A stretch of 64,000 nt of DNA from Ginglymostoma cirratum. Taxonomy: Eukaryota. Location of the stretch: contig JAHRHZ010000289.1 of the NCBI GenBank assembly GCA_024137785.1, forward strand, positions 4,410,324 through 4,474,323. Reading direction: 5' to 3'. The notes below the pieces were generated by a model. That model saw only the letters and a program-made list of their open reading frames with translations, did not search any database and was not told where the DNA came from. The position numbers were made by a program, and so were the translations under genes. Positions 16,021 to 53,730 of the stretch are shown here, piece after piece. Positions within the stretch are counted from its first letter, which is position 1; each line of letters begins with the position of its first letter.

Positions 16021-16128
16021 AGTAAAGCAAAAGATGAAGAGTCAACAGACATGAAACATTAACCCTGCTTTCGTCTCACAGATGCTGCCAGACCTGCTGA
16101 ATTTCTCCAGCAATTTTTGTTTTTGCTT
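16021..16128 (+). mobile_element. short Penelope-derived insertion with 16-bp TSD
   Basis: Flanked by cagaaaacttggctta at 16005-16020 and 16129-16144. The body cagatgctgccagacctgctga is shared with the other copies. Confidence 0.8.
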
Positions 16129-16180
16129 CAGAAAACTTGGCTTAGTGTTTTCATGCAAACAGTCTAATGTATTTCCTTAC

Positions 16181-16306
16181 CAAGTGATGATTCAGATGCA
16201 GAGGAGGATCTATTAACGCTGAATGCCATGTCAGAGTCACTGTCATAATGGGAACCACCCGGAGAACCTGAAGGAGATACATCTACAGGACTGGACTGAG
16301 ACGTAC
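16181..16306 (-). CDS. neurl1b: neurl1b coding exon 4, Ser-rich linker
   Basis: CCCTCTGCAG| acceptor and G|GTAAGG donor; 126 nt. Encodes GTSQSSP...DSDSDMAFSVNRSSSASESSL, matching the NEURL1B DSDSDMxFSVNxSSSASESSL motif. Confidence 0.95.
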
Positions 16307-16644
16307 CTGCAGAGGGAATATTAAAGCCTGTTAACTCCACAGAGCACACTCCATTTCAGAGCACATTATTGTTGTTGCTTTCAACATGCAGAAGACCATT
16401 GCCATGATATAAACTCCAATGCCAATGCACATAATAAGTGTTTATTTTCCTGCATTGTGACATAATTGTAACATAATTTCATATAGCAGAGGTAAACAGA
16501 AATTTATATTGATCCTAAAGCAATTCAAACTATATTTAGTGCTCATTGCTAACATAAGCTGAGAGTATGAAAATATATCCATTCTGTTTATTCTTAATTA
16601 TTGATCATTTATTAAATGTATTGGAAATAAAGGTTTATTTTGAA

Positions 16645-17530
16645 AATAGGTGGGAAGGCAAGTCGTGAGGATGACACAGAGTCTGCAGTGGAATACAAAC
16701 AATTTGAGTGGGCAAAAACTTGGCAGGTGGAATATAATGTGAGAAAATGTGAGGTTATGAACTTTGGCAGGAAGAATAGATGAGCTGATTATTATTTAAA
16801 TGAAGAAAGACTTCAAAAAGCTATGAAACAGAGATTTGGGAGTCCTCATCCATGACACACAAAAAGCTACCATCCAAGTTAAGCAAATAATAGGAAAGGC
16901 AAATGCAATGTTGGTCTTCATTTCAAAGGAATGGAGTATAATTTTAGGGAGGTCTTGCTAAAACTATACAAGGTACTAGTCAGATCACAGCTGGAATACT
17001 ATGAAGAGTTTTGGTTCTCTTACCTAAGGAAAGATATACTGGCATTGGAGGCTGTCCAGAGAAGATTCACCACACTGACACTGGGTTTGGAGGGATTGTC
17101 TTATGAGGAGAGATCGAGTAGATTGGGCCTGTACTCGTTGGAGTTTAGAAAAATGAGAAGTAACATTAACAAAATGTAAGATTCTTAGGGAACTTGACAG
17201 AGTGAATGTGAAGAGGTTGTTTTCCCTTGTGGGAGAGTCTAGGACCAGGAGGGCATAATTGAATAATAAAGGGTCGCACATTTAAAACAGAGGTGAGTAG
17301 GAATTTCTTCTTTCAGGTGGTTGCGAGTCTGTGGAATTCCATTCTGCAGAGGGCTGTTGAGGCTGGGTGATTAAGCATATTCAAGGATGAGATAGACAGA
17401 CTTTTGAACTGTAAGGGAATCAATGTTTGCGGGAAGTGACAGTAGAGTTGAAGATTTTCAGATCAACTACCATCTCATTCACGGCTGAGTCGACTTATTG
17501 GGCTGAATGGCTTTTGCTGCTGAGTCTTAG
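16645..17530 (+). mobile_element. 5'-truncated CR1 LINE
   Basis: ORF 16931-17179 (LLKLYKVLVRSQLEY...LEAVQRRFT...LSYEER...LGLYSLE) is the CR1 ORF2 C-terminus. Confidence 0.9.
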
Positions 17531-18039
17531 GTCACCAATCCAAGACCAAATACAGAATGGCCAGATGAAGACTGAGATGCTCTTTACTATGTTCTAATGA
17601 ATATGCCTTCACATTAATCTCAGGGAAAAACCCAATGTATCAGTTAACATCAATCCTAAATCCCCTCAAATCATATTTTATGTCCATCATTAAACAGAAG
17701 TGAAATCTGTGACAGCACTAAAAGGCAAACTCTATAACATTATATTCCTTTTGTTTGTCACACATATATTTGGTTTTAGCATCCACTATTTGATTAACTT
17801 GATCAACAGGTCTTTCATTGTACAAACTGACTTAATTTTTTTCAATTAAATAATTCTTCAGTTCCGCAAGTCTGGCAATGTTGGAGGTCCCCTTATTATG
17901 ATTACATTAAAACCGATGTCCTGTCTCTCTGTTTCCTTTTGGAAGGATGTACAGCCTATTTATTAAACTATTTACAAGAAACGTTTGTGGCTTCACAAGT
18001 GTCGAATCTCTTTAATCTGTCATTAGTATCAGCCATGTT

Positions 18040-21200: not shown

Positions 21201-21923
21201 ATTTCCTGTTCCTATGCAAGAATATTTGATAACTAATCTAAGTGATTCAGCGATTCTGATATTAAACCTGCGTGTTTATTCCACTGTTGTGCAGAGTCAA
21301 ACTTTCTACATTTTGTTGATTAATTTCCCAAATAATTTGGTGATGGAAGTCACAGCCATTACAATATCTGAAAAAAATTAAGTATACTAACAAACACAAA
21401 ATATATGCTGTACTGAAACAAAACATGTTGGTTGGCTTATTGAAATTTCTACATGGAATCCAATAAGAGCTGATTAAAGAGCCTTTAAGAATACTAATTC
21501 CAAACAGTGGGTTACTATTCTATGCAACTCATTTCAATTCGGCCAGACAGTATGTTGTGAAATACAGTTTGAAAAGGACAGTATTTAGGAATGTTTCTCT
21601 GCTTTTGTCTTGATGGTATTGATTCTTACAGTAACTGCTCAGGAGGAAGGTGTGTGTATGTGTACTATCTGTTAATCATTGAACTGATCGGCGTTATTTC
21701 CTTGTCTAACAATCACACAACGGTATTTCCCAAAAAGGATCACTGAACAACAACTGGTAGTTGCCCAGGCAAAGTTTCCTATCCTTATCTGTTGGGTTTT
21801 TTCTCACGTTTATAGTTTAGAATACTTTAACAAATTCAAACATATGTTTTATTCACCCTTTTGTAACTATAATTCTAATAAGCATGACACGTGGGATAAA
21901 TAAGCAAGTACCAGTTTACTTAC

Positions 21924-22631
21924 CCAGAATCCTGAGCTGATTGACCACTCCATGTAAGCTGAAGAATACCCACAGTGACTGAGTGGTGTCCACAAAGACC
22001 AGCATCCCTATGTTTATTCCGTTAACACGATGATGGAGCTCACCATTTGGCAGAATAGTGAAACTGAAAATATCACCGCTGTTGGGCACTGAGAAACCTC
22101 TGTACACCACCCAATACTCCTTACGATCAAGCAGATAGTCTGGATCCGCTGGGAGCTCATTTGTTCGCAGAGTACTGGGGTCGCATGATGTCACACCGAA
22201 GAGCAGAGCACCATAATACGGCAACCCTAAATGCCCCACCTCCACATACAAGGTCTCCCCAGTATGTAAAGGTCGATCAGAGAACACCAGGGTCCTAGTA
22301 CTCTCCTTCCAGTTTGTGCATGCGCCCATCCTATCCTGAGAAAGAGTGACGTCAGGCCCTCGTATATGGTGGAAGTGAAGGTCAGTGTCGAGGAAGGACG
22401 GTAGGCCCCGTGAGCGAAGCCGTCTGTTGGTACAACACGGTAAATTATGATTGTCTGCTGCAAGGCTTTGAACTTCACCTACATTTAGGTTTGTAATTTT
22501 TGCCACCACAACACTGTTCTCCAGTTCATTATTATTGAAGTTGGCATTGTCATGACTCGTCTGAGGAAGGCAACTATTCAGTCGTGCTGTGTTGAGCCGT
22601 GCTGAAGTTATGGTATCTGCAAACATACTCT
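21924..22631 (-). CDS. neurl1b: neurl1b coding exon 3, linker plus second NHR domain (NHR2)
   Basis: ATTACAG| acceptor and G|GTAAGT donor; 708 nt. Encodes ESMFADT...NFNNNELEN...LVFSDRPL...FGVTSCDP...NELPADPDYLLDRKEYWVV...LWVFF...QLRILG. The linker matches the 1B paralogue. Confidence 0.97.
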
Positions 22632-23489
22632 CTGTAATAGACACAGAGGGAAAATATTACTGCTGTTATATGTTTGATCCGGAAACATTTCTTACCACAG
22701 ATATTATGATACCAGACATGTATGACATTCATAAATATAAAGAAATGGTGAATTTAACCGAATTCACTAACTCTAATCAGAATTACTAATACATACATAT
22801 TGTAACTGTGGATCTGTTTTTCTACATTTCATTCTGTCTGATTACTTTCCTGTTTCCCCTCACTTTGAAACAAATAAAGAAATAGGTTCGTCAATACCTA
22901 GGGCTTTAGTTTCATTAGCTCAGAATCTATTCGCTCCGTGGAAAATGTTGTTAACTTTTTTTTTCCTGTTTTGATGGTATTTTTCCAAATTGAAATTTCT
23001 CTTCCCTGTTTTAAAATCAATACGTAGAACTTGAAACAGCTGGAAGCCTATAGAAATCTGTAAAACAACAACCGGGCACTGTGTTGCTGCCTTTTGTGCA
23101 CCTGCTTGCCCTCACACAGCTATATTGTTTGTTAATCAAGGTGAACAATGAAATGGGAAATCAAGGAGTTAGAGCTGTGCATTTTTATGAAACAAAACAT
23201 AATACACAGCTCCTTCAATTGATCCTCCCAACTCACAATATTGAAAGCAAGCCCCCAACTTTCATGCAAAGGAAACTTCCAATTATTACATGAGATTGCT
23301 GCCAAGCTTTTTACAGCAATTGTGTAGAAGCTGAGAGCACTTTGCATTGTATGCCTTGCCCGCTGAGAACTGGATACAAGTCATTCATTGCATGACCTTC
23401 AAAAACTGACACAAAAGAGTCTATCAAGTAAACTAGTCTATAATCAAATTCAGAGGTTAAAATTTGACATTCATGTCGTGTTAGAACTA

Positions 23490-27609: not shown

Positions 27610-28510
27610 AAACTCATGGATGGGTATCCGTTGCCTGTCCCTAGTTGCCCTTCAACAGATGGTGGTGAGCTCCCATCTTGAACTGTTACAGTCCATGAGC
27701 TGTAAATAGACCCAACATGTCATTGGAGAAAGAAATTCAAGGATCTTGACGCAGCAATAAAGAAGGAACAGTGATATATTTCCAATTCACGAAGTTGAGC
27801 AGGTTGGAGGAGAATTCGCAGGTGGTAATGTTCCCAGGTATCTGCTGCCCTTGTCCTTCTAGATGGAAGTGCTTGTGGTTTGAAAGGTGCTGTCTAAGGA
27901 ACTCTGGTGAATTTCTGCACCAATCAAGAAGGCTGGTTTGTCCTGGATGGTGTCAAGCTTCTTGAGTGCTGCTGAAGCTGCACCCATTCAGGCAAGTGGG
28001 CAATATTCCATCATACTCCTGACTTATGACTTGGAGATGGTGAACAAGCTTTAGGAAATCAAAGTGAGTTATTCACTGCAGAACTTCTAGCCTTTGACTT
28101 GCTCGTGGAATCCCTGTATTAATATGGCTGGTCCAGTTCAGTTTCTGGTCAATGGTAAAATCTCAAATCTTAGTGGTGGAGGATTCAGTGATTATAATAC
28201 CACTGAATATCAAAGGGTGATTGTTAGATTATATCTTATATGGTCGTTCCCTGGCATTTGTGCAGTGCAAACGTTACATTCCAACTATTCAACCAAAACT
28301 TGGATACTGTCCAGGTCTTGCTGTATTTGGACATGGACTGCTCAGGAGCTGGGGAGTCACAAATTGCTCTGAACATTGTGCAATCATTGATGAATATCTC
28401 CACTTCTGACCTTATAACGAAGCGAAGGTCATTGATATCCCGCAGAGATGTCCTGGAGCTGAGATGACTGATTTCCAAGAACTGCAACCATCTTCCATTA
28501 TGCTAGAGCT
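27610..28510 (-). mobile_element. CR1-like LINE fragment
   Basis: ORF 28236-28487 (INDL...IRSEVEIFINDCTMF...WNVTFALHKCQ) is a degenerate RT catalytic region; colinear with 12513-13470 at the 3' end. Confidence 0.8.
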
Positions 28511-29153
28511 GACTTGTCTTGCAAGCTGTGACCTGCAGTTTCCTGTGTTGACCAAAGGGAGGTGTCATTGTGGTTTTCTAGACACACTGGCACCATAATT
28601 ACCTTATATGGAGCATGGTATATGACTGCAACTTTGTATAAACATTTACAATGAAAGTTGCTACTCTTCAGTGCCATCCCGTCTCCACTGATGCCCTCAC
28701 TATTATCAGTCCTTGCTGGACTTCGCCAATGCAGATGCCACTGATGCCACTATGTACTGCACTGGCCCAAACTTGACTTTGCTGCCATGAGTCGGTTTTG
28801 GGCCCATCTCACCAATGCAGCTGCTACAGTGTCTCACATTGGGCCCAAACTCAATTCTGCCACTGTTTCCATGAATCTGCGCTGGATGCAGACGCCGCTA
28901 GGAACCCAAACGTGCCTCCACCACAGCAGCCATGAGTCAGTGCTAGGACCACCTCATCGAAGCAGAAGCCGCTGGGAATATAAAGACACTTCCGCTGCCA
29001 CCACAAATCTGAACTAGGCCCAGTCGAGTCTGCACTGGGCTCAGTCAGCACCGCTGATGCCAAAACCATAACCAAGCTCTTCAACTTCCCTCATTCTATT
29101 AGAGACCAAAACTCCACCTCCCTCAGCCTTTAACAGCTGAGTATTTGTAGCAC

Positions 29154-29455
29154 AAACAGGAGGCTGGAAGAACACAGCAGTCCAGGCAGCATCTGGAGGA
29201 AAGGAGAAGTTAACGTTTCGGGCATTACCCTTCTTCAGGACTGGATGTGGGGGTAGGAGAAGCTGCAGGTAAAGATGGGGGTGGTGGGGATGGAGGGTAG
29301 CAGAATGGTGGTGATAGGTGGACAATGGTAGTAGGTACAACGTGGTTGGTCAATGGGAGGGATGAATCCTGTTGGTAACTGGAAGGGTCAGTAGGTGGAA
29401 TGGAAGCGACTGTGCACCTTGGATTCCAGCATCTGAAGTTTTCTTGTCTCTAACC
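29154..29455 (-). mobile_element. Penelope-derived insertion with intact hammerhead-like core (29212-29238) and TSD
   Basis: TSD gagtatttgt(a/t)gcac at 29139-29153 and 29456-29470. The minus strand reads CTGAAGA-A-GGGT-AAT-GCCC-GAAAC-GTT. Confidence 0.75.
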
Positions 29456-30111
29456 GAGTATTTGTTGCACTCTGGGGTAGAGACATACAAAGACACAATT
29501 GTCTGAAGAAATTTCTCCTCTCCTCAGACCTAAATGACTGTTCTTTTATGGCGAAACTAGTTATTAATATAGCCAAGCCCATTTGTGCTTATGACATCAC
29601 ATGAGTCAGGGCCTGCTAATCTGAAAACGAGTCTCATATTCTTACTGTTTTCTGTCCCTTAATCATGCCTCTGTCCATTGTGACACATAAACCCCAACAC
29701 GAAGAGCCCTTATGCTGCACACCAAACTTATCAAGTGTCTACTACAAATTTAAATATGCTACCTCCACCAGTTCCCATACCTGCTTCTTCCAACCTCAAA
29801 TATAATTTCCCTTCATATTAATTCATGTTGAATCTGCCTAATTATATGATTGTTTTGGACTGCTATTAACACTTCCTTACTAATGGATTCTAGCAGTTCC
29901 ATGCTGACATCTGGGTGCAGGAAGTGCTTCCTGAATATGCCTCCTAATGAGAGCCCTGCTCAGCAGAAAGCACCAAACACTATCAGAATCATAGAAACAA
30001 TCAACAGACCAACCGGCAACTAATAAGAAACTGGATAGGTAATCTTTTTAAATAGTATTAACACTGAATTCCTCTGCTACTGAATGTGTGCTCAGCCAAA
30101 TATTATTAAAA

Positions 30112-30331
30112 TAAAAAATGAAAGAACTGCGAATGCTGGAAATCACAAGCAAAAACAGAAATTGCTGGAAAAGCTCAAAAGGTCTGGGAGCATGTGTGGA
30201 GAGAAATCAGAGTTAACATTTCGGGTCCAGTGACCCTTCCTCAGAACCCTCAGATTCAAACCATTAACTGTGATTTCTCTCCACACATGCTCCCAGACCT
30301 GCTGAGCTTTACCAGCAATTTCTGTTTTTGT
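30112..30331. mobile_element. Penelope-derived fold-back (inverted-repeat) mini-element
   Basis: Inverted arms of about 70 bp. Minus-strand core CTGAGGA-A-GGGTC-ACTG-GACCC-GAAAT-GTT lies within 30212-30247. Confidence 0.8.
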
Positions 30332-35598: not shown

Positions 35599-35612
35599 CC
35601 CCTCCCCCATTT

Positions 35613-35640
35613 CTGATGAAGGGTTTAGGCCCGAAACGTC
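35613..35640 (+). ncRNA. minimal type I hammerhead-ribozyme-like motif (mirror copy at 34482-34509, minus strand)
   Basis: CUGAUGA-A-GGGU-UUAG-GCCC-GAAAC-GUC: conserved core, 4-bp stem II, palindromic ACGU in place of stem III, and a GUC cleavage triplet. Activity is not shown. Confidence 0.6.
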
Positions 35641-36565: not shown

Positions 36566-36772
36566 AACAAACAAAGAACTGCAGATGCTGGAAATCCCAA
36601 TTCCATCACAACCAAAACAGAAATTACTGGAGCAAGTAAGCAGGTCTGGCAGCATCTATGGGGAGAAACTGCAGTCAATGTTTTGGATCCAGTTCTAAAG
36701 AAGGGTCACTGGACCCACAACATTGACTCTGCTTTCTCTCCACAGAGGCTGTCAGATGTGCTGAGTTTTTCC
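36566..36772. mobile_element. Penelope-derived fold-back mini-element
   Basis: Inverted arms around a decayed core (ctaaagaagggtcactggacccacaac). Imperfect TSD ttgtatat(t/a)gtt at 36553-36564 and 36773-36784. Confidence 0.75.
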
Positions 36773-38000: not shown

Positions 38001-39362
38001 TACACATGCATCCTCCAATCAGGATGGCCTCAGGGCTCTCCACTTCTTCCTGGAAAGAAAGTCTGAACCGTCCCCATCCGCCAACACCCTCCTCTGCCGG
38101 GCCGATGGGTCCTCAGTTTGAACAATTTCTCCTTTAACTCCTCTCACTTTCTTCAAGTCAAAGGGCTGGCTGTGGGTATCCAAATGGGCCCGAGTTATGC
38201 CTGTTTCTTTTTATGGTGTATATGAAACATTCCTTGTTCCTGTCTTAATCTGCCCCCCTCCCCCGATCCACAACATTGATGATATCATTAGTGCTGTCTC
38301 CCTCCTTCATCCAGAATTGGAAAAAATGATCAATTTCGCTTCCAATTTCCAATGTGCCCCTCTTTCCCTTCCTCAACATCCCTGTTTCCATTTCTGGGAT
38401 AGGCTGGCCACCAATATCCACCACAAACTTCATGACTCCCACAGTTACCTTGACTATATATCCTCACACCCTGCTTCCTGTTAAGACTATTTCATTCTCC
38501 CAGATTCTCCATCTCTATCACATCAGTTCTGACGATGCCACCTTCCTCGGAGGGGGGGGGGCCTCTGAAAAGTCCACCTTTTCCTCAACAGGGCCCTTAG
38601 CCATGTCTGACACATCTCTCACACTTCTGCCCTCACCACTTCCCTTCCCTCCCACAATAAATAGGGTTCCCCTGGTCCTCCTTTACCACCCCACCAGTCT
38701 CCACTTCAGACGGATTGGACGCATCATTTCAGTCCCCACAAACTGGATGCCACGACCAAACACATATTCCCCTCCCTTCCTTTAGCAGCATTCCGCAGAG
38801 TCCATTCCCTATTGGACACTCAGGTACACTCCTCAAAGCTTTAAGAACAACATCTAAATTTCCTCCTGGGGACCCTACAGCCTCTAGGGATCAGTATCGA
38901 GTTCAATAACTTCAGAGCCTGATTCCATCCTTCCATGTTTTTTACTCACCCCACATTCGGCCGTGTTATGACACAGGTCGCTTTTAGCACAGTCACCCAT
39001 TCCCACGTACTCTTAGGCCCATTATCATATTATACCGGGTAGTTTTCAGTCCAACTAACCCATTTTCCCACACTTAGCTCTTATTATATCTTATTCAGCT
39101 TTTCTTCCATGCTGGCCAGCTATCCATGATCTCCATGTTTACTTAAAATTTTCATATATTTTTCTCCCTGGACTCCATCTCCACCTATCCACTCATCTCT
39201 CCCCCTTCCCCCTCCCCTACTTCGGCTTCAGCATAAATGCCACATTTTCCTAGCTACTATCAGTTCTGAAGAAGGGTCACTGGACTCAAAACGTTAACTC
39301 TGTTTATTTCCCACAGACGCTGCCAGACCTGCTGAGTTTCTCCAGCAGTTTCTGCTTTTGTC
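38001..39362 (+). mobile_element. decayed Penelope-like retroelement (RT remnant through 3' hammerhead-bearing end)
   Basis: QVKGLAVGIQMGPSYACFF at about 38155-38210 and NIDD at about 38272-38283 are PLE RT motifs. The 3' end reads AGTT-CTGAAGA-A-GGGTC-ACTG-GACTC-AAAAC-GTT-AACT at 39262-39299. Confidence 0.85.
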
Positions 39363-40679
39363 CTCATCTCCTGGACTTAACTTATGTACTTACCCTTTGA
39401 CAGGACCTGGCAAAGTATCTGTCTGTGCTGCTGGACAAGTAGATCATAGAATATGGCAACTACAGCCATGAAAAAGGAGCTGCAATTTGATTACAAGCCA
39501 CCAAACCCCTGATTTTCCGGCACATAAACAGCCCTGTTAAACTTAAGGTATGCTCCAAAAATCTGAAGGAGCCATAATCAGAATTTCTGGCTAGAAAAGA
39601 AGAGCCTTAAAGGGAAAAAGCGGGAGTGGAGTGGCAATGCGACTGTCAATCTGCTACTCCTTGGAAAATCCAGACCGATTGTGATTTGTAAAAGTCCGTC
39701 AACTAAATACATAATCTTAAATCACTTACAGTAATGTCTTGCAGAGTATATTGCATGCAAGTCAGTTGGGCAGACAATGACTTGATGCTTCCAATACCAG
39801 TTTCACCTTAGATTAACATTTAGGAATTGTGGTGAAAACAATTATGCTCCCAACACAGTTTCATTTTAATATAACAATTATGTGCTATGCTCAAAGCAAA
39901 ACATGCTGCTTATTTACGCAAACTTTTATATGATTTTAATAAGAAAGTACGTAATATATAGAAATTTTAGACAACTTCCCCACTCATTGGGAACAAGGCA
40001 AGGTTACTAAACTGAAACTTATAAAAATCTAAAAATAATTGTTTCAATTGGTATGTGCTCATTGGCAGAACTAAAGCATGACAGAGGTTGCAAAAACAGG
40101 GATATGGCTTGAAATTCAGAGTTAAAGGCAAAGGAAAAGAAAACCTCAAAGTGCTGTTCTAATTCTCAACATGTTTTACTGAATAAAATATCTGGTGTGA
40201 TTCCTATGAGCTGAGACACCATATGATCTCAGATCCTTACAGAGACTCCAGACAAAAGCTCAAATAACGAAGTCCTCAACTTTGATCAGCTATTGCTGAC
40301 TTTCCCAAAATCATATTGAATTGGATGGCTGAGAATGTTACACCATTGTTGCCAATGGCCTTTGCTAGAGAAAAGCAGATAGCTAAAAGAATAAAGGATG
40401 GTAATTTTACTCGATGGAAACACAGAATGTTACTCGACAGAATTCTGACACTGATGTGGTACACTTGCAAGCAAGCTGCACCAATATTTCTTTTTTGTCT
40501 AGATTGTGGGTCATAAGTTAAAAGTCTTGGTCTCAGCTGTGACAAAGTGGGTGGACTTAAGTAATCGGCTTGTAATACAGGCATGTTGGGTACAGGACTT
40601 ACCTGCAGTTGCTAGACAACTCAAACCACCTCATCTTTCCAATTATTGGAGATGTTAATTTTATTGCTGGAATACTTAC

Positions 40680-41240
40680 CAAGCATTTGGACCTCTTGTG
40701 TAATTCCATAAATGTCAATCAATGCCCAGAGTGGTCCTGAAACGTTAATACCACACTGGAAAAGAACAGGGTCTTCATCGTTCACATTGTAAAATACTCG
40801 TCCGTGCCTGTCCACCCAAAAAGCAAGGACGTTGTCTTTCAGAGCAAACCTTTCAGGTAATGCTTTGGCCCAGTAACCAGGCCTGGTTACCAAATCAGGG
40901 CAGGCATACTTTGGGATATCTGCAGAGCTCATCTGAGAGGGATCATGACTTGTAAAACCAAACCGTAAAGCACCACTCCATCCGTGAAGTACCACTGATA
41001 ACCGTAATCGCACTTTTTCATAAAGGTGAACTGGGCGGTTGCTGAACGTTACACCATTACAGAAACTGTTCTTCCGAGTGGCTTTTCTGAAATGTGAGTC
41101 CAGACGAACATTTTTCCCTTTGGCCTGCGAATGAAATCTAGGAGGTTCAGCAATGTTTGGATGTGCTCTCCGTTCATGACCATTAGTTGGAACGGTGTAG
41201 TACTGACGAGCAGATCCAGAGCGAGTCTGGTGAGCTGCAT
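40680..41240 (-). CDS. neurl1b: neurl1b coding exon 2, first neuralized homology repeat (NHR1)
   Basis: TTTACAG| acceptor and G|GTAAGT donor; 561 nt, open. Encodes PRFHSQAKGKNVRLD...NSFCNGVTFSNRPV...GWSGALRFGFTSHDP...PKYACPDLVTRPGYWAKALPE...LWALIDIYGIT, the NHR signature. Confidence 0.97.
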
Positions 41241-43883
41241 CTGTAAAGTTAAAATTGAATAGTGTTAAAAAGGCTGTCAGATTTTACTTCAATGTAATGG
41301 ATGTATTCTATCATGACAGTAAATTGTTTATCAATAGTAGTTTCTATGAAACTGAACATTGTATCGAGTTTGACAATGTTAATCCATTTCAAATTTGTTT
41401 TATCACTGTTGATTCTTAAATATTTGCTACCTGGTCTTTGATACCTTCATAATTCCTCTCCCAGCACAAGTGTAGGATGATGAATGTCTCCATGTCTTCA
41501 TTGAATATTGATGCTGTTCTACAACTATTCTGTGTGTACTACTATTCAAACTTGAAGTAGTTAGTAACACCATTTTCCATAAAAATTATATAAGCTGGTT
41601 TGCTGTCATGCTTAAAAATTGCTTGGCCAATACAGGCAGGGAGTTCCTCTGAATATTTAACAGCTCTGGCACTCAAGCCCTTGATTAATAGCCGAACACC
41701 AGATCTTCAAGCTCACCTTACTGAATGGCTCATTTTAGAAAGAACTATTTTGTTTGTCAAATGTCTCATGTAAATTGCTCTTGGCTCAGAATGAAGAGAT
41801 TTCTATCTACTGCGACGACTGCAATGGATAAGTTAACAACATAAACAGATCAGACCTGTGCTTAGAATTGTCAAGGTATTGACCACCTGAATAAAACTAG
41901 GCACTGAATGCTAAATGTTGAAACATGTCTGCATCGTATTTTTAAGGAAAAAGTGACAATCATTTTGTTTTACTTAGTTAACAGCTGCAATGACAATCAT
42001 AACAAATTGTTTAATACTTGTGTTTTCTGCCTTATCCATCAGATACTTACGAAGTCAAACAACAGTAGAAAGATTTAAAAGTATGACATATTTAAGGAAT
42101 TTAATAACAAGATTAGGAATTCTCACAAAGCACATGCCCAAACCTGGGTCAATTTGAAAAATGCCAAATGGGAGACAAGCTTCATTTTCTTACACATTCA
42201 CAAACATCAATGACTTGTGCATTAAACAGACTGTTTACTGGAGAATCTCCAGAATTGTTAAAATACAAATTATACTGTACAAATTATAATTCTAAAATAG
42301 GCTACTATCACAGCATCCTCAGTGCCGATTTACTGCAATGCTTCAGATAATATTGGAAGTTCTACTCTCCTTGTTTTTGGCCCTTTATGGGTTACTACAG
42401 ACATCCAAAGTAGAGAGTCACCCTGAAAAACAACGCTTGAGACAGTCAGAAGGGATGGATTTCACTGTAAACGAATCATTATTTGGGTGATTTGAATATG
42501 CCAAATAGACAATGGATAAAGATACTTCAGATGTAAAATTAAATTTGAAATCAGTATAAGACTGAGGGAGTCCGATTTGGGATGAGGAACAGAATGGCTA
42601 ATCCTAATCTGAACAGACTTTATCATCCTCTAATATACCATGTACAAAAATAAATACACCTCATTTGCATAAGTGAGCTCTGCACGGTAAAAAAAGTAAG
42701 AATTCATCAGCCAGACACCTATCGTAAAATAATTAAGGTATCAATCTTTACAGAAATTTCTTAACATTTTCAATATGCCTTCTTCTAAATTCCACATGCA
42801 GCGAATCTTTAGAATTCTCTACCCTAATGGGCTGTGGAAGCTCAGACTAAGATTGATACATATTTGCGAAGTAGAAATATGGAATTTGGAGATTGTGCGG
42901 GAAATGGTGTCGAAGTGGAAGATCCACCATGATCCCCTTGAATAGCAGAGTGCACTCAAAAGTCTGAATAGCCTACTGCTGCTCCCCTTTATGTTCTTGC
43001 ACATATTTTAGAAGTCAATAAAGTGGTGAGCAACATTAAAAATAATTCTTTATGCAATTTTCAGAAATCAAACTTTAGTCAACTGTTAAATGAAAAATCT
43101 AACTAGTACAGATTTAGAAATTTGAGAGCAACAATAAAGAATACAAAAAAAACATAGCATGTCAGCTTTCACTGAGCATTGAAGATCTAATATCTTTACT
43201 CGAGATTGGTCAGAAGCCTCAGCAAGTGACCAATTTGATGACTAATATTTCATGGGATTCCTTTCAGGCACTGACTTACTCATAAATAACATTATTTAAA
43301 ACAGCACTCAGATAGAGGTGCTCAGATCTTTGGAATGTATGCACCAAATTGATTTGCTTGTGAGAAGCGAACCACCAAACAGGAATTTCCAAATTTAAGC
43401 ACCTCATATCCTATGAAGGACAAGGCATGCAGCCTGGGGAAACTTCTGTAACATATTGAGATCAATATCATATTGCTTGCACTTCCAACCTTCCTTCCTG
43501 CAGATTCCCGATTAAGGGAAAGATGATGAAGAGGAAGATAAAGGCAGGAAAGCTGAAACCACAGAGGCAGCAGTGCAAACAGATGAGAGCGGTTATGAGT
43601 CCTTGTGGATTAGGTGATAAAGTTCCTTCATTGCTTCTTTGAAGAAGCAAATGCACCTTTGCACAAAGCTCCTCTGTAATATTCTCAATTGATCTGTTTG
43701 GCTGTAGAGTCAAAGGTTGGAGGTTGAGTATCTGGTGGACTGCTTCCTCTTTAAATGCTGCCTGACTATCCTTTGCCCCATTCTCTACTTCTCCTGCTCC
43801 ATGTTATTGCTCACAAGTGTATTCCCACCATACATCCTCAGGAGAAGCACTTACCCGACGTAGGAGGGTGGGTAAAACTGCCA

Positions 43884-44120
43884 CAAACGAAAACAGAAGT
43901 TGCTGGAAAAGCTCAGCAGATCTGGCAGCTTTTGTGAAGATAAATCAGAGTTAACATTTTGGGTTTGGTGACCCTCAGAACAGTTCTGCGATGGGGTCAC
44001 CAGACCCAAAGCATCAACTCTGATTTCTCTTCGCAGATGCTGCCTGACCTGCTGTGTTTGGCCAGTAATTTCTGTTTTTGTTTACGATTTACAGCATCTG
44101 CAGTTTTTTGGTTTTTATTA
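43884..44120. mobile_element. Penelope-derived fold-back mini-element with 13-bp TSD
   Basis: TSD ggtaaaactgcca at 43871-43883 and 44121-44133. Inverted arms of about 95 bp are centred on cagaacagttctg. Confidence 0.85.
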
Positions 44121-47100
44121 GGTAAAACTGCCAGTTTGTTTTCATCCTTTCCGAAGCAGTAAGAAGGTCCAGGTGTGCATGGATAGATAGTTTTTGCTCC
44201 AGCTTTTAAAAAAAATACCATTTTCAGGAATCACTTATTAAACTCTTCAGGCTTAGATGTTCCTCATTTCTATCTGCATCAGGAGATTCTGGTAAGACCT
44301 GTGTCGTATAAATCTGAATTTAAGTTACAACAAATGCAGTAAAAACATAATGCAGCCAAGATGGAGATGCAGCACGATTGACCATTTATTTCAATCTATT
44401 TGCTGTGCTTTATGATTATGAGCCAAAGGAGCCTAAGTAAACCATACATCCCCTTGAAGCATTCAATAAGATCTTGACTGATCTCATCTTGGCCACAACT
44501 CCGCCTCCTGTCCAAATCCCATATCCCTCAACACCCCTGTAGATAAAAAAAACTGTCCAACTGTGATGCAGCCCAGAGCACGCTGAATGAGTTTGCTTGC
44601 TGCACTGCATAATTCCTCTAAGACTGCCACATGTCTGTGCATGCGTGCATTTTAAGAGGAATTTTCCTTTGTATAGGTTATTTGCAGCTGATGCAACCTT
44701 TTCCCAATTGCCTCACATCCACACAGATTAGAAGGAATAATCTCAGATCTTGACTGGTAATAAGGCAAGGCTCAAAAAATGCAAGTGATTTAAAGGTGGA
44801 TAACTGGCAGAAACCATTTCTTGATTTCACTGCCACCAATAACAATGGGGACCAAAAGGTGGAAGAATTCACCTTTGATATATTTATTTTTAGGAGAAAG
44901 GTTATTTTGCAATTCAACCCCAGGCGGCACTGCACCCAAGTATGACATAATTACAAGTAAATACAGCAAAAAAAAAAGACCCATTTATGGTGTCAGTTGT
45001 ATTATGTTACAAACGCTTTGAAGAGAGTTTACATCTCCCCAAAACCTGTATCATTTTTCACATTCTGGGAAAGTTTATGAAGCTATTATAACTTATATAT
45101 AACATTATAACCTGCAGGATTTACAGACTGTAGAGCTGTCACATTGGTTAAAGAAGTTATAAGTCACTGTCCTAGCCAGAGATTCTATAAAGTAAATTGC
45201 CCATTTATTGCATGTGGTACATTAGCTTATTGTATAGTGATAAACTGCCACTGTTATAATGTAATTTGGACCAAGGTGATTGCTGATAACAAATATCTGT
45301 TTGGAGTGTGCAGATGCTTATGACACCTTCTTTGACATTCATGAAGCAGCTCATTTGGTTTTTAAAACTCCATATCACAAAAGCTTATACCAAAAATTTT
45401 AAAAAATAACATTGTTCATCTATTTTGCTAAAAGTATGTTCTTTGTAAGTTAACACGGACAAAACACACACATTCCAAAGTAATGGAAAATAAGGTGAGG
45501 AAGAATATGATTGAATGCAATTTTTAAAAAAGGTTCTGGCACAAGTCCAGGGAACATTTTGATTTGGAAATCAATCATTAATTGTGGACCAGATGCATAA
45601 AATATGAAAAGGATGTTAGCATTATAGTCAAGGTTATCATCATCCTATAATTTTAACTGCAGTACACCAGTGCATAATTTTCTACAACTTGTCTTTTTTT
45701 AAGCAAGTGTTAGGATCTCCTCAAAGTTACTGACATCCATTAGTTTAACAATGAAGCAGCTGACAAATGTATAGAATTATTTCTGGAATTGCAGGGAATT
45801 TGCGCACCTATTCATAAATAAATGGCCCTGTGAAATAGACACTTGACCATTTATTTTGTGCTAAAAACTATATTACATTACTTTGCTAGTTTTCTATTAG
45901 AAATAGATTAAAACTTTTTTTAAACTTAAAAAAAGGATTACCATAAAAGAAAACATTGTTACGTATACTCAGCTTGTTCTTATAAATGACTGCAAATGTC
46001 AATAAAGAATTTGTTCCGTTTTTTCCATCTAAAAAAAAGCTTTGACAATCATTTGCTTCCTTTATAAACTGCTGATATATTTACCAAGGTCATTGCAAAC
46101 AAGTTATTCAATTCAATGAAATAATCCATTTCCAATAAGTTTTGAAGGCTTTTTGAGTATGGTATCTCTGCAATCCCATGGCTATATTAACCCAAACAGT
46201 GAACCATGTTGCTATGAACAGTTAGCAGCACGATAACACACAATGTGCATTCACAGACTCCAACTGCGAATCGACAACATTTGACCAGAATTATCTTAGA
46301 CTGATTAAAAGAATAGTTCAGTTCAAGTGGTAAACCACTGTATAGAGCAGAAATACTTTGTAATTGGGTTGGGATGCGAACAGTATCACGATCAGACTCT
46401 TTACTCAAAGCAACTGTTCTTTATTTTGACTATTGGAAGTTCTGTGTAATGTAAACAGATGGTGGCTCAAGTGCTCTTCCTAAGAAGATTACAATTTAAA
46501 GGACATAACATGATTGTTAGTTTTCATTTGTTCATGTTCCACTGTACATTAAAATACACACAATATTCTTATGGGATGAACAGAGTGGATGGGGAGATAA
46601 TTACTCTTTATGCACTCATAATCCATGGAGATTACAGGGGCTTTATTGACAATTGTCCTCCTGGGATTTTCTGAAACAGAAAACATTTCTCAAATTCTTT
46701 TTAAAAATAACCTTCCATTTTTCATCTACAGTGATTACAAAAGTGACTCAATACTCCAGGCTCACCACAACTGAAACCTTTTGATATTACACAACTCTAT
46801 TGCTTTGTCTTTTATAACTCAACAAATAAAATCACTTTGTATTGTAGGGTTTATCTTCAGATAACCTTTCTATATTGAGCAGGTAAACTTTAACAACTAC
46901 AGTAAAAGAACAATTCCTTTCAAAGCACCAGATAGCTGCAGCTATTTGAGTGCAGTTAATTTTTAATGGTAATGTATAAAACCAATATTGATATAATATA
47001 GCTTCTCCTGGAAAAAGAACACAAAATATGAGTTAGTTAGGCCTGGACATCTTGAAACTGCATCGCTGCAGAAAGCATCAGAGCTGCACTTCCCTACTCA

Positions 47101-48481
47101 CAGTTTCACTTGTTTCCTTGACAGCACACGGTATGATGACATAAGTGCTACATTAAAACATCTGTCACTACTTTTCATCTGGTACAATCTCTTCCTCAAA
47201 ATTGACATAAATGTTAAAAAACGAAATAATTGTTTGCTTAAAGATAATGCAAATCTTTTGCAAATTAACACCAAAATTTTCTGCTCAGCACTCCTGACAT
47301 GTTGGGGAATATTGGAAAATTTCACATCCCCAGCATATGATTTTCCAATTATGGGAATAGATGGTTGGAAAAGCATGGGCTGTGGATACACATATTTTCA
47401 ATATACAAAGTCTGACAGGAGCATGGAGGTGAAAATCAAAGCCACTAATATATAATTTAAGAATACTGTTCTGCAAAGATAGACTGGAGCACTGTTGTTC
47501 CTGCCTGGGGCCTGCCATCCTGAAGCTGTACTCTTAGAGAACTAATTTGTAGATTAAATAAAAACGTTCGTGATTTTCACTTGATCAGAAGAGAAGTCAT
47601 TAGATTCTCTTTGTTTTATTGGAAAATCTGATTGAATTAGATAAAAGATCTGTTGTTCACCACAGAAACATCTAAATTCTAAACTGTACACAGCAATCTT
47701 TGGATTATATAATTATGTATGGTATGGAACATTTAGAAAAATTTTCTTTTGCATCATAAATATTAGTAGAAAGATTAATATTTATGAAAAAGTATAATGG
47801 TAAAAATGAACAAAACTGAACAAATCACAGCACATGCATCATTTGAATGCAAAGATCCTGTAGATTGGTGAGTTGTCGTATGTGAAATACATTGGAAGGA
47901 TTTTTTTTTGCTGGGGCTTTACCTTATTCTAGGTCTCCTTTCTAATTTTATGTATCACTCTCCTTTCAGTAGGTTTCAAAATGGGAAACAGTAGTCAGTC
48001 AGTCTGCCAGTAATAAGCCAATAGCTAGTATTTAGAAATCAATTTTAAAAGTTACTTTGCTGGTTGGAATGGCATGAGTAAAATATTAACATATGTAGCT
48101 TGATAGCCACTAGAAACATTTAGTTGTTGAGTTACTTGTGATCAGATGTAAAGCACAAATATATGGAAAATATGTAAAAGGTACTAGGAACATTTCTTTG
48201 ACTAATAAGGTTCAAACAATATTCACTCTTGGATTGTTACTCTGCTTCAAACAATAACTTGATTCATGTGGTATTTCTTGGATAAAATTGCAGTTTAGCT
48301 TATAGATTTAATTTTGGTTTCTCAAGGAGCACATGGGTGATATGTCGCTGTAAAAGATCAGAGAAAAGTAAACAGGAATACATCCATTTCACTAACTAGT
48401 ACAAGAGTTACAAGTATACTTTGTTGAAAGTAATTCCTTGTGAACTTGGTCTAATTCTCTCCAAGTATTGGATTAAATCAT

Positions 48482-49051
48482 GAGATAACAAGGTGTGGAG
48501 CTGGATGAACACAGCAGGCCAAGCAGCATCAGAGGAGCAGGAGGATCAGAGGAGCGATGCTGCTTGGCCTGCTGTGTTCATCCAGCCCCACACCTTGTTN
48601 NNNNNNNNNNNNNNNNNNNNNNNNNNNNNNNNNNNNNNNNNNNNNNNNNNNNNNNNNNNNNNNNNNNNNNNNNNNNNNNNNNNNNNNNNNNNNNNNNNNN
48701 NNNNNNNNNNNNNNNNNNNNNNNNNNNNNNNNNNNNNNNNNNNNNNNNNNNNNNNNNNNNNNNNNNNNNNNNNNNNNNNNNNNNNNNNNNNNNNNNNNNN
48801 NNNNNNNNNNNNNNNNNNNNNNNNNNNNNNNNNNNNNNNNNNNNNNNNNNNNNNNNNNNNNNNNNNNNNNNNNNNNNNNNNNNNNNNNNNNNNNNNNNNN
48901 NNNNNNNNNNNNNNNNNNNNNNNNNNNNNNNNNNNNNNNNNNNNNNNNNNNNNNNNNNNNNNNNNNNNNNNNNNNNNNNNNNNNNNNNNNNNNNNNNNNA
49001 CCTTGTTATCTTAGATTCTCCAGCATCTGCAGTTCCTACTATCTCTATAAC
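48482..49051. mobile_element. Penelope-derived fold-back element spanning a 400-N gap (48600-48999)
   Basis: Near-perfect inverted arms at 48488-48599. TSD ttggattaaatcat at 48468-48481 and 49056-49069. Same tail as 35655-35739. Confidence 0.8.
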
Positions 49052-49659
49052 AGTCTTGGATTAAATCATATCTTGTTCACAGTGAGACAATATGAACTAT
49101 TTCATCTGCAAATTAACTTTGAGCAAATGGTTTCAGCTTGCACACAGTGGTCTACAGTGTGGTTACGATGTCTTTTGAGGCAATAAGAGAAGGTTGTAAC
49201 ATCCGAGCAAGACACCGAATACAATTTGAGTTAATTGTTAGAAGTGGGCTTTGCCCATGGCAGATGTTACAGTTTTCCGATACGTAATCAGAAATGTTAT
49301 TATTTAGGGTGACTGTAATCTAGACATGAACAGACAGTAGGGAAAAGCTCAAAATGAAACAAGGTATAATCATGGTTTTGGTTAGAATGCAAATTCATCG
49401 GGCTCCTTACCAAATTTTACTCAAATAACAAGTTGTTCGATGATCATTTTTGCGTCACATTAATCTCCTCAAACTGTACCATAATCAACCTCTCATTCGG
49501 TCACTTTTCAATAATTAAGGAGGATGCTAGATTGTCAGGTCCCAGGATTTTTCAGGGAATTCTCTGTTATTTATAGAAAGTGCACATGGGTGCTCCAAAT
49601 GAGTTCTCCTTCCAATGAAAGAAAACTGCTTAAAACTGGCTAAAAAGGTTAAAACTGTA

Positions 49660-50200: not shown

Positions 50201-50484
50201 AACAAAAAAAACATACTCGCGTCTTCATTTATAACTAGATTTCCCATAGGTCAACAAGCAGGATGCTTCAAAAGTTTACACTGGTACTGCGGCTTGTGGG
50301 CTCAAGTCCAGTGGTGCCTGGCATGTAAAGCTAATTGCCATGTGATCATTCAGTCTGGTAGCTCTTTTGAGAGTTGTAGAGGCTTCTACACTGTTTGCTT
50401 TGTATGATGGAAGGATGAAAGCGTGAAAGAGCATTAAGCAATTACAGAAAATGGACAGAAGAAACAGAACAAAATAAAAGTCCT

Positions 50485-50580
50485 GAGATAACACGGTGTA
50501 GAGCTGGATGAACACAGCAGGCCAAGCGGCATCAGAGGAGCAGGAAAGCTGACTTTTTGGGTCGAGACCTTCTTCAGAAA
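50485..50580 (-). mobile_element. single-arm Penelope-derived fragment with decayed core
   Basis: Same arm as 48482-48540; the minus strand reads CTGAAGAAGGTCTCGACCCAAAAAGTC. Confidence 0.75.
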
Positions 50581-52911
50581 TAAAACCCTGTCAGGGCAAG
50601 TGTCAGCACTGGAAGCTCAACAGTGGTGGGCTCAGCCTATGTTCACAAATATAAATTTCTATAGGTAAGGATGCCAAATATCATGGGAATTCCGGTTTCA
50701 ATTCTCACATGAAGTTCTGTTAATATAATTTGTTTTCACTAATCTTTTGTCGACATTAACAGCAATTACACTTTTTTAGATGTTGTGTTCAGGCTACTCA
50801 AAATACATGTAATGTACACCTATCTTAATACACCTTTTATTTTTAGTTCTCACTATTTCTTTCCTAAGTAGAAGCCTAAGTTATAACCTTCCTACAAGGT
50901 AATAGCCAGCATTTCTCAAAATAAAACCACAAATGGCAATATTCCACGAGCACCTTTAAATTCCATAGCAGTTTCAAAATAAGTACCATAATCCATCTTC
51001 AAAAGAGAAGGAATGGAGTCACCTCTGGGTTATCAGAGATGCCCTGGTCACAGGAAATAATTAAGCTTCATACATTAAAAAGAAGGTAGGAAACAAATAT
51101 ACTGTTCTGAACCATCTTTGTGAAAACACTTTTATACAGCTGTGCATTTACCTCAGGTCTGCCATTCAAAATCATGCATATTGGTTTGAATATGCTGTGA
51201 ACATTTTTAAATAAAGTTTAGAAAAGTCAGAGAAAGCAAAGTGCACAAGCCTTTCAGTTCTATCTGTATGAGCTTTTGGCTAACAAAATGCTTGAGGAAA
51301 GATGTTTTTATTCCAAAGAAAGCAAAACTTCATTAAGCCTATAATTACCAATTATAAAACAAAAGATTTTATTTTTAAAGGAGTAACTTATTTTCTTCTG
51401 AGCGTGAAACCCATGAAGAATTGTATTAATATTGGATTAGTGGTGTGTTAAAAATGATAATGTCATAAATCATGTTACAAGCCTGCGTTCATTAACTTTA
51501 GAATGGAAGTGATTCTTTGAATTGCTCATTTTGTCATTCTTGATTTCTAAAATAGCTTTTAAAGAATGAGGAAATTCATCCTATTATTGTATTCAATGTA
51601 CTGTCTGACCTACTTATACTGGTTCCCCACATATTTTGATGGTATAATTTTACACAAACAACCAGTTACATTCCAAAACAATACCTATTTTATTGCTCAT
51701 TTTTAAAAAGAAAATTATACTGTGAGCATTTAATCTAAAATTCAGCAGAATATTACCATTTTAAATTCTGCCCATACACAATGGATTAAATCAATTTCAC
51801 CTACTGAAATGGCAGTCTAGAAATCTGACCAAGCCAGTTTACAGCCTCCAAATAGGTGTTGGCCATGATCCTTGAACGTGATGATAGAAGCCCAGGAATT
51901 GCTGGAAATTATTATTTGGGTTGAGACTAAATAGTTGTGACAAGCAGCAGGCTTCTGTTGTACTTCACCAAGAAACTTGACAGATTGACAAATTGGATTT
52001 TGAAGATTCAGATTGTCCCATGAATGCAGTTGCCAACAGGTCTCAGGATTTGGGGTAATAGAAGTTCTATGGAAGCAGGAGGAGACCCCCCTTCCTTTTG
52101 GCTCCACCTTAAACTCTTAAAAATAATGGATGTGATTGGTATCCAAGGGCCAGGCAGCACATTTGAAAACCCTGTGCAGAGCATGTCTGATACTTTTTCA
52201 GCTCAACGCAATCATGTTTTTGAGGACACATGCAAGTGGCTTAAAGTATGTTTCAGGGAACCATTCCGACTGTATGAAAATTGGTCTAACACCCATCTGA
52301 GATCAAAACTATTTTAGGCACCAGTAGTTTAAAACACCAAAACTGAATATACTTAGAATAACTAAAAAGGGAAATTTCAAAATGTAACAGTCATTTTTTT
52401 TTCAGCAGAAAGCTGTACTTCAGCAAGTTGCAACACTACGTGCCACTGATCATTTAGATAACATGTTGGCTCATATACTGTGTTTGGTTTCCGTGTTTCA
52501 GACTACTCTTACATTGTTTGAGAGTTCTGGCCCCTCTGTTCCAAAGTTGTCCTGATACTTTTGTTAATTTCCATGTTCGAAAAACAGAGAACCCACTTCA
52601 CGATTTCTTTTACTGATCTTATCCTATTTATTCATGTAAAATTTGCTGTCTTCAGAAAACAGTAGAGTAACCTACAGAAAATTAGTGGAAATGGTTTGTA
52701 GTAAAATTAATAGTACCCTACCATCTTAACTAATGATAATGACATAAGATAAATAAAGAAACAGTCTTTAAAAAAAATCAGTAAATTGACTGAAACGCAA
52801 GGGGTTCTTTTTTTTAAATACAATTGAAGGAAAATAAACTACTAAAATTGCAATTATCTTTGCAGAAAACAGCAATATTGCATCAATTATATTGGCTTTT
52901 CTTCATCACAT

Positions 52912-53205
52912 ACATAGAAAATCATAGAATCCCTACAGTGTGGAAAAAGGCCCTTCGCCCCAACAAGTCCACACTGAACCTCAGAGCATCCTACCCAGAC
53001 CCACCCCCCTAATCTACACCTCCCTGAACACTACGGGCAATTTAGCATGGCCAATCCACCTAACCTGCACATCTTTGGACTGTGGGAGGAAACCCACACA
53101 GACATGGGGAGAACGTGCAAACACCATACAGATGGTCGCCTGAGGCTGGAATTGAACCTGGATCCCTGCTGCTGTGAGGCAGAAGTGCTAACCACTGTGC
53201 TGCCC
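52912..53205 (-). mobile_element. HE1-like V-SINE
   Basis: Colinear with 2396-2683; translates in the track as AQWLALLPHSSRDPGSIP, a SINE-head artefact. Confidence 0.85.
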
Positions 53206-53630
53206 CAATCATTGTATTAATTTGATAAATTTGTGCTGAATTACCAACAATCAAAAGCAGTGAATTACTATGGATAATTGTTTCAAATAGGGTTTTTAAT
53301 ATAAATGTTAAGTTTGTTCTAGATATTTGTTTGATGTATTGGCAGTGGTCACTCTTAGTAGCAAATACTACCTTTGCTTACATGCAATTTTTCACTTGTA
53401 CAGTCTGGTAGTTAGACAGTCTGGGTAACTATAGGGCCTACTTATTATCATGAATGTTACCATTTCCATTGCAAGTGGCACAGCATGCAGGTCTCCAATT
53501 AAAGACAGATTGATTAACACTTTAATGAGGCTAGACCAGATTCTTATCTTACTTAAGATGCTTTAGTTTAAAGGTAACAAGTAAGCCTACAGATAGAGTT
53601 GTATTAGGTCTCACTTACTGCAACATACTA

Positions 53631-53730
53631 TCTGAATTGAAGGGTAATACCTAAAACATTGACTGCTCCTCTCCTCCAGATGCTGCCTGGCCTGCTGTGT
53701 TCTTCCAGCCTTCTGTTTTTCTACCTTGGA
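53631..53730 (+). mobile_element. single-arm Penelope-derived fragment
   Basis: gaagggtaatacctaaaacattgact...cagatgctgcctggcctgctgtgttcttccagcc is the reverse complement of the 29154-29240 type. Confidence 0.7.

Follow-up and report, generated by a model that had tools for sequence, protein, structure and literature searches.

What are the short, hairpin-like repeats that recur in a 64,000-nt stretch of the shark Ginglymostoma cirratum genome (contig JAHRHZ010000289.1, positions 4,410,324 to 4,474,323; here called the window, with positions counted from its first base), and how were they made? A sequence-only reading of this stretch had described one dispersed family of Penelope-derived fold-back elements, perhaps a separately mobilised non-autonomous class with ribozyme-delimited ends that would look like miniature inverted-repeat transposable elements (MITEs). 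We find instead that the window repeats are the pseudo-long terminal repeat (pseudo-LTR) ends of three autonomous, endonuclease-bearing lineages of Penelope-like elements (PLEs). They are probably run-off copies of the first 95 to 135 bases of a capped RNA, a reading in which the capped start is the inferred part and the RNA start itself is a prediction. The status of the short copies as by-products of the autonomous elements is well supported.

Throughout, the hammerhead core residue C3 is position 0 of the repeat; a single copy of the repeat end is called an arm, and an insertion consists of at least one arm. Profile searching combined with repeat finding recovered 15 arms in 10 window insertions, namely, all nine that had been listed before and the remnant at 39262. 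They fall into three lineages rather than a single family: A (16021, 30112, 36566, 39262, and 43884), B (34483, 48482, and 50485), and C (29154 and 53631). Only five are two-arm fold-backs (30112, 34483, 36566, 43884, and 48482); 29154 joins a long arm to a tail-only arm, and single arms lie at 16021, 39262, 50485, and 53631. The target-site duplications (TSDs) of 12 to 16 nt reported for six insertions were all located, with exact repeats at 16021 (16 nt), 34483 (15 nt), 43884 (13 nt), and 48482 (14 nt) and one mismatch each at 29154 (15 nt) and 36566 (12 nt), while a search at 30112, 39262, 50485, and 53631 returned at best 8 to 11 nt with mismatches. Independent insertion, high abundance, and a MITE-like appearance were likewise supported.

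The identity of the source elements comes from relatives in the same genome, where searches covered 4.36 Gb and found copies 85 to 90% identical to lineage A, 84 to 87% identical to lineage C, and 99 to 100% identical to lineage B. In all three lineages, other copies extend upstream through a C-rich untranslated region (UTR) into endonuclease motifs. Downstream of the repeat end, copies enter a long reading frame whose first in-frame Met is at about +166. The same ends run into GIY-YIG elsewhere, and the earlier proposal that the repeats stem from Penelope pseudo-LTRs carrying a minimal type I hammerhead was upheld. Pfam matches at loci L147 and L142 included GIY-YIG (E = 4e-6) and RVT_1 (E = 2e-6), and a reverse transcriptase (RT) fragment scored 28.2, just below the cut-off of 29.6. 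Locus L299 carries RT thumb, linker, and endonuclease within one frame, and the C-X4-C-X2-C linker between RT and endonuclease (L142 and L299) fits the Neptune CX2-5CxxC motif, which the passages available from PMC8557442 also attribute to Nematis. Among the matches listed, all 150 scored RT-core matches were at 100% identity; the RT remnant in the window (37989 to 38835) is 32 to 47% identical to the young RT. The pseudo-LTR end precedes the open reading frame (ORF) start, and both inverted copies and a one-sided tail were found, as in endonuclease-bearing (EN+) PLEs. The source elements are therefore autonomous, recently active, and Neptune-type, the clade being assigned by the linker motif and not by a tree.

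Abundance was measured in a genome sample of 20 blocks (1,000,000 bases drawn, 548,125 readable), which may be unrepresentative, since 8 of the 20 blocks were entirely N and one mostly N. It held 136 insertions, or 1 per 4.0 kb, so the earlier estimate of about one per 6 kb was right as to abundance and, if anything, too low as a figure. If the sample is typical, a condition that the N blocks limit, the genome holds about one million copies. By architecture, the 136 insertions comprise 49 head-to-head fold-backs, 84 single copies, 2 direct pairs, and 1 triple. Of 123 gap-free insertions, 97 are no longer than 300 bp, and gap-free insertions cover 28,374 of the 548,125 sampled bases (about 5%). 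TSDs were called at 48/136 insertions, compared to 21/286 random control positions, and at 33 of 46 same-family fold-backs, with lengths mostly of 11 to 17 nt. Two clusters of 3' ends are seen, near +92 and +130, and in 39 of the 46 same-family fold-backs just one of the arms has the tail. Fold-backs of mixed lineage were also considered; the inspected cases (B19:20726 and L158) look like nested insertions. A DNA-transposon MITE was rejected, because the arms are retroelement ends and the TSDs are variable in length (11 to 17 nt). Assembly gaps of 400 N lie inside young fold-backs in the window (35199 to 35598 and 48600 to 48999) and likewise in many other loci; young hairpin insertions are thus under-assembled, and their lengths are unreliable.

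The evidence for run-off copying begins with a fixed 5' edge. The sample contained 183 arms, of which 161 were usable (22 adjoined a gap or edge), with breakpoints accurate to about 3 nt. Fifty-four of the 161 start at −8 to −1. The interval from −16 to −9 has 3 starts, and that from −40 to −17 has 0; the remainder start downstream of −1 (75 arms) or at −41 or farther upstream (29 arms). Exact end walks in young lineage B, with 22 of 73 ends left out as gap adjacent, placed 22 of 51 at −6 to 0. Ribozyme-delimited ends are not supported, as the 5' ends lie where helix I begins, about 31 nt before the predicted cut site. At this edge, an A at −4 lies within an initiator-like motif in 86 to 100% of arms, and the AT-richest 7-mer is at −29, −29, and −31 in the three lineages. 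RNA sequencing (RNA-seq) of polyadenylated RNA carrying the same species label (fragmented reads; one read set gave 13 reads) showed depth stepping up at the edge in lineages A and B, where the main upstream loose end also lies.

A second line of evidence is the base added at the edge. Where the base before the −4 A is not a templated C, it was G in 21/33 junctions. With 9 junctions dropped because an inverted arm could account for them, and 3 more as repeats within one insertion, untemplated G remained in 14/20, against an expected fraction of 0.26 (p = 5e-5), whereas control breakpoints elsewhere had G in 4/21. The T run adjoining the edge was lengthened in 13/48 short lineage B arms and 0/43 long arms. 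An untemplated G at full-length L1 and SVA insertions has been taken as cap copying in the sections available from PMC4859970.

Comparisons of partner arms, like those of breakpoint pairs and symmetric centres below, are limited to the samples and are not genome-wide. In 23 TSD-bounded lineage B fold-backs, the distance of an arm to its own partner was 0.084, compared to 0.142 to other arms (p = 2e-4), with private changes shared, and lineage A partners shared 34 minor variants where 20 were expected. Because partners resemble each other within several subfamilies, the fold-back structure must have been made repeatedly. A test of arm concordance at the +78 variant, intended to distinguish one template from two, was uninterpretable, as recurrent mutation and lineage variation were inseparable.

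In the mechanism we propose, the TATA-like box and initiator would direct transcription from the A at −4, with which helix I begins. The element protein would nick both target strands and prime reverse transcription inside the RNA at two sites (+92 and +130), much as the available part of PMC11167929 describes for anole Poseidon (PAc) in vitro, where both strands were extended from two internal sites. Priming on the 5' pseudo-LTR copy would bring the enzyme to the cap within 95 to 135 nt, and there it would often add a base opposite the cap and stutter on the U run. One complementary DNA (cDNA) would give a solo stub, and two cDNAs, one per nick, would be joined head to head as a fold-back tailed on one side only. 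Long copies could arise when a read-through RNA is primed on its downstream pseudo-LTR, or when the enzyme jumps templates. Selection would act on the hammerhead in source elements, and stubs would carry it as a decaying passenger. In lineage B, a short upstream frame of about 35 codons (L135 and L272 to L295; +43 to about +150) precedes the long frame, and pairing within this region can also form an outer stem (around +45 and +110) located between both priming sites.

A number of observations count against a capped start at helix I with run-off copying. No molecule-end pile-up was reported in the RNA-seq data. Reads occur equally in both orientations, and 78 to 98% continue into unrelated sequence, indicating that they come from genomic copies inside host transcripts. 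The AT-rich box is weak in lineage C, and the initiator pattern, being short and sharing bases with helix I, is perhaps kept for the ribozyme alone. The G signal is mostly from lineage B (11/14, compared to 3/6 in lineage A), the lineage A G at L236 may reflect microhomology, and the lineage A loose-end consensus has no G. A templated C stands at −5 in many short arms (24/48 in B and 19/28 in A). The junction set mixes random and search-selected loci; the random blocks, the window, and L193 to L250 alone give 10/14 before the inverted-arm filter. Own-partner distance in lineage A was not significantly lower (p = 0.10). Finally, the parts available of PMC2377424 and PMC4209133 place the start of Drosophila virilis Penelope upstream of an intron, at a TATA-less promoter, a different layout that argues against a universal one.

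One extension of run-off copying, which we regard as unlikely though worth stating, borrows from retroviral strong-stop synthesis and strand transfer. The RNA would start at helix I, a downstream hammerhead would cut its 3' end, and the ribozyme core would serve as a terminal redundancy of roughly 31 nt; the enzyme would copy from +92 or +130 to the cap and jump to the 3' end, making the roughly one million stubs failed strong-stop products. Among 24 loci chosen for their ORF start, 15 have a second core downstream, and 6 of these 15 (L272, L276, L286, L287, L288, and L289) join the ORF directly to the pseudo-LTR at −4 to −7, with a different ORF position each time and G at −5 in three. The strong-stop scheme fits these joins and one window arm that ends at the cut site. 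The joins suggest that the enzyme can jump templates after reaching the fixed edge, and the scheme itself is not required, as long copies are also explained by downstream pseudo-LTR priming. A seventh flagged join (L281) proved to be a long UTR. At L292 (1372 to 1800), the two pseudo-LTR units of a single tandem insertion differ in their subfamily variants, which suggests that copying switched from one RNA to another.

The closest competitor to a capped start also treats the short copies as by-products of autonomous elements, with the edge representing a stall or template switch on a longer read-through RNA (at helix I or at the edge of the C-rich UTR) and the G ordinary nontemplated addition. 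This would accommodate the lack of a transcript start in the RNA reads, the weak G excess in lineage A, and the fact that sequence becomes C-rich just upstream of −4 in all lineages. We consider it rather improbable, as breakpoints elsewhere show no such G excess, the 5' ends form a cliff with the tail on the downstream side only, and an AT-rich box sits at promoter spacing in three lineages. A block by RNA structure would also be expected to halt the enzyme as it enters the hairpin from the 3' side, near +20 to +30, before the 5' edge is reached.

A quite improbable alternative is a non-autonomous mini-element, either solo stub or hairpin, that would be transcribed in its own right and moved again by the Penelope protein, in the manner of a short interspersed element (SINE) or retrozyme. 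The predominance of insertions of 300 bp or less would suit it, as would the presence of stubs in polyadenylated RNA and the existence of non-autonomous PLE derivatives (bioRxiv 2026.07.22.740005 and PMC8557442, in the portions available). So would the many symmetric fold-backs found by searching with the centre of the 43884 insertion: of 20 examined, 9 (including the window copy) have a near-identical 7-nt centre, in loci chosen by that centre. The junctions speak against it, and a separately mobilised class is not supported. Tabulating breakpoints for recurrent short structures gave pairs that were almost all distinct in 35 gap-free fold-backs, with both arms at −9 to 0 in 7. Only one centre recurs; measured against the longer arm, it is found in either polarity (4 versus 5), and several subfamilies carry it. 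Centres of the remaining 11 fold-backs differ, the shorter arm has a variable outer end across the 20, and no alignment column separates long-arm from short-arm sets. Partner arms have private and subfamily variants in common across several subfamilies, stubs lack the upstream AT-rich box and everything beyond +132, and the 136 insertions include only the 2 direct pairs and no retrozyme-type array of complete-core units.

That hammerhead self-cleavage sets the element ends is very doubtful. Three of the 51 exact young lineage B 5' ends lie at the cut site (+28/+29), and the inverted arm at 34483 terminates at +26 to +30. Against this, the cut site is about 31 nt downstream of the peak, the 3 ends at its two positions come close to a background of about one end for every two positions, and only 1 of 113 arms ended there, though the loci were mostly picked by downstream sequence; in the available passages of PMC11167929, PAc does not need its ribozyme in vitro, and none of the reads stops at the cut site. 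Weakest of all, and hardly credible, is a splice acceptor like that of the D. virilis Penelope intron ending at helix I (PMC4209133, in the part available). Lineages A and C do have CAG at −5 to −3 after a pyrimidine run, but lineage B has the sharpest edge with no AG there, and no common upstream exon precedes the edge.

How much of the ribozyme survives was assessed separately. The exact core pattern gave 3 matches within window elements (29215, 34485, and 35613) and an unrelated fourth at 37712. The statement that most copies retain the core was not upheld: only 4/15 window arms fit a stricter minimal-hammerhead descriptor, one of them with a CpG change in helix III, while the 39262 copy lacks G12 and the 48482 copy has no core. 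In the 548-kb sample, the strict descriptor found 26 cores, compared to 0 in each of 5 shuffles. Since these 26 stand against 183 arms, most copies have a broken ribozyme, with broken cores often at CpG sites. An extra A between core and stem II, earlier taken as a departure from the canonical core, is present in 182/185 strict cores and is a conserved feature of PLE minimal hammerheads in the sections available from PMC4209133. The features of a minimal type I hammerhead (core, base 9/10.1, G10.1-C11.1, and palindromic 15.2-16.2) are found in the source lineages and not in most copies.

Variation among 78 haplotypes fell at hammerhead-tolerant sites: position 7 (A/T/G), position 17 (C/T), and loop II. 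Both sides of a helix changed at I.1 (U-A in 60 and C-G in 11), I.3 (G-C in 39 and U-G in 24), and II.5 (C-G in 44 and A-U in 12). Each such two-sided change represents one lineage event, and the search pattern fixed part of stem II, leaving too few for a covariation test; older lineage B subfamilies have helix I mismatches. This pattern of variation supports selection on the ribozyme in source elements. An Rfam scan of the window, a check the sequence-only reading had proposed, gave no hammerhead model match at an E value of ≤10 and six chance hits. Folding of monomers gave z scores of 0.1 to −1.3, with no significant stability and helix I not formed, and was uninformative, as expected for a dimer-type motif. 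Lunse et al. are said to have found that PLE hammerheads cleave as dimers. A fold-back transcript probably could not form a direct dimer, because its cores are on opposite strands and it would fold into one long hairpin. No read-end pile-up was seen at the cut site in RNA-seq, where fragmented reads could not reveal one. Sample blocks B12 (L086, offset 33687) and B19 (L121, offset 28792) hold a fourth minimal-hammerhead lineage, with a GC rather than CG palindrome at 15.2-16.2 and another stem II. As a ribozyme discovery, these repeats are ordinary.

Among lineage A insertions in the window, the element at 37989 to 39365 (+) is decayed, with a frameshifted RT and thumb (37989 to 38835), a linker and endonuclease that are mostly gone, and then the endonuclease C terminus, C-rich 3' UTR, and pseudo-LTR end; C3 is at 39266, G12 is lost, and no TSD was found. 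Its predicted core promoter (39233 to 39266, +) would combine an AT-rich box (39233 to 39238) with an initiator-like motif whose A, at 39262, is the first base of helix I and the 5' breakpoint common to short copies. The solo stub at 16021 to 16128 (+) consists of a 12-nt filler followed by an arm from about +2 to about +98 with a broken core, between TSDs at 16005 to 16020 and 16129 to 16144. The fold-back at 30114 to 30330 (both strands) has a minus-strand arm from −3 to +130 with tail (C3 at 30244 and a CpG change in helix III) and a plus-strand arm from about +17, with no convincing TSD. At 36565 to 36772 (both strands), a minus-strand arm (+13 to +131, with tail) faces a plus-strand arm (−5 to +77); the cores are broken, and the TSD (36553 to 36564 and 36773 to 36784) has 1 mismatch. 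The symmetric fold-back at 43884 to 44118 (both strands) has arms starting at −3/−4, a 7-nt centre, and an exact TSD (43871 to 43883 and 44121 to 44133), and it folds as a single long hairpin (z = −15.6) with the core buried.

In lineage B, the young insertion at 34483 to 35739 (both strands) lies between exact TSDs (34468 to 34482 and 35740 to 35754). Its inverted, minus-strand arm runs from the endonuclease C terminus through the 3' UTR and ends at +26 to +30, and its plus-strand arm runs from −14 to +127 with tail. The latter carries a full minimal type I hammerhead motif (35609 to 35644, +), with the helix I 5' strand at 35609 to 35612, core at 35613 to 35619, extra A at 35620, stem II at 35621 to 35632, the helix III palindrome, a predicted cut 3' of 35640, and the helix I 3' strand at 35641 to 35644. 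The inverted-arm end (34468 to 34490), which shares microhomology with the TSD, falls at the predicted cut site and is the only such end among the 113 arms checked, at loci biased against ends of this kind. The UTR of the same arm contains a 218-bp tandem duplication (34509 to 34944, 99%). The fold-back at 48482 to 49051 (both strands) has no hammerhead, with arms from +34 and +46 and a TSD at 48468 to 48481 and 49056 to 49069, and the older solo stub at 50485 to 50581 (−; −4 to +93) has a broken core and only an 8-nt TSD candidate. In lineage C, the insertion at 29154 to 29455 (−) consists of a long minus-strand arm (29154 to 29409; −171 to about +84) with an intact core (C3 at 29238) and a tail-only plus-strand arm (29413 to 29455), with TSDs at 29139 to 29153 and 29456 to 29470 (1 mismatch), and the solo stub at 53631 to 53725 (+) starts at −1 and has a broken core and no TSD found.

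Other repeats share the window. A direct repeat (14330 to 14419 and 15021 to 15110) is 97% identical over copies 691 bp apart and had no match in the genome sample, pointing to local duplication. A short repeat at 2393 to 2685 and 52912 to 53208 is abundant, with about 40 matches in the sample, and may belong with the shark HE1/V-SINE, which it resembles. Fragments of another abundant repeat, which we take to be probably a CR1-type long interspersed element, lie at 12531 to 13470, 27624 to 28514, 34205 to 34480, and 35740 to 35996, and the 34483 element sits within one. Open frames of 208 to 246 codons outside repeats (21919 to 22656, −; 40624 to 41283, −; 61322 to 61945, +) are possible host exons.

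The origin of PLE pseudo-LTRs, inverted ends, and tails and the role of the hammerhead are an open question in the field. If run-off copying is correct, stubs locate the transcription start at the base with which the ribozyme begins, and fold-backs are two run-off cDNAs. For annotation, such ends, to which Rfam gives weak microRNA matches, belong under Penelope and not under MITEs or microRNA hairpins. The layout and ribozyme are already known, and earlier papers describe the extra A, the opposite-strand pairs, the inverted ends, and the one-sided tail. A literature search, with subscription journals and supplements outside its range, found no paper on shark Penelope stubs, the fixed edge, or a capped start at helix I, and the passages available from PMC8969392, PMC12602865, and PMC6155905 contain nothing on a fixed edge or cap sign.

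Neptune-type EN+ PLEs, as far as the accessible text of PMC8557442 and PMC3846280 describes them, share the RT, Cys-rich linker, and GIY-YIG, heavy 5' truncation, an inverted 5' pseudo-LTR, a 30- to 40-nt tail on one end, TSDs, and solo pseudo-LTRs. The shark copies differ in being mostly 95 to 250 bp, in occurring about once per 4 kb, and in having a sharp common 5' edge with an extra G; a fixed 5' edge is absent from those descriptions, and TSDs are 11 to 17 nt here, compared to 8 to 10 in Adineta PLEs. Metazoan PLE minimal hammerheads (Cervera and De la Pena 2014, PMC4209133, in the parts available) likewise have no helix III loop, a palindromic 15.2-16.2, a 4-bp helix I, an unpaired base between 9 and 10.1 that is listed as conserved, and G10.1-C11.1, and are mostly single and dispersed, with dual motifs 100 to 700 bp apart on opposite strands. 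The shark copies have a shorter stem II (4 to 5 bp), and their number would be far above the 4,000 to 9,000 given there for coelacanth and Xenopus; sharks are not named in those parts.

Poseidon of Anolis carolinensis, PAc (PMC11167929, in the sections available), offers the same two internal reverse-transcription starts bracketing the tail, cutting and extension of both strands, and a hammerhead just upstream. It belongs to another clade, and its ORF starts at stem II, compared to a first in-frame Met of the long frame at about +166 here; those sections map no transcription start and do not treat short run-off copies. Non-LTR retrozymes (bioRxiv 10.64898/2026.07.22.740005, in the portion available) are also non-coding, hammerhead bearing, and pseudo-LTR related, and occur in one chondrichthyan genome. 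They form head-to-tail arrays with complete cores, whereas the shark copies are solo or head to head, with mostly broken cores. L1 and SVA insertions also have a fixed 5' edge with an extra G, which the available text of PMC4859970 interprets as a reverse-transcribed cap. Since L1 primes at the 3' end of its RNA, the G there marks rare full-length copies, whereas internal priming in these PLEs would make the G-marked products the shortest.

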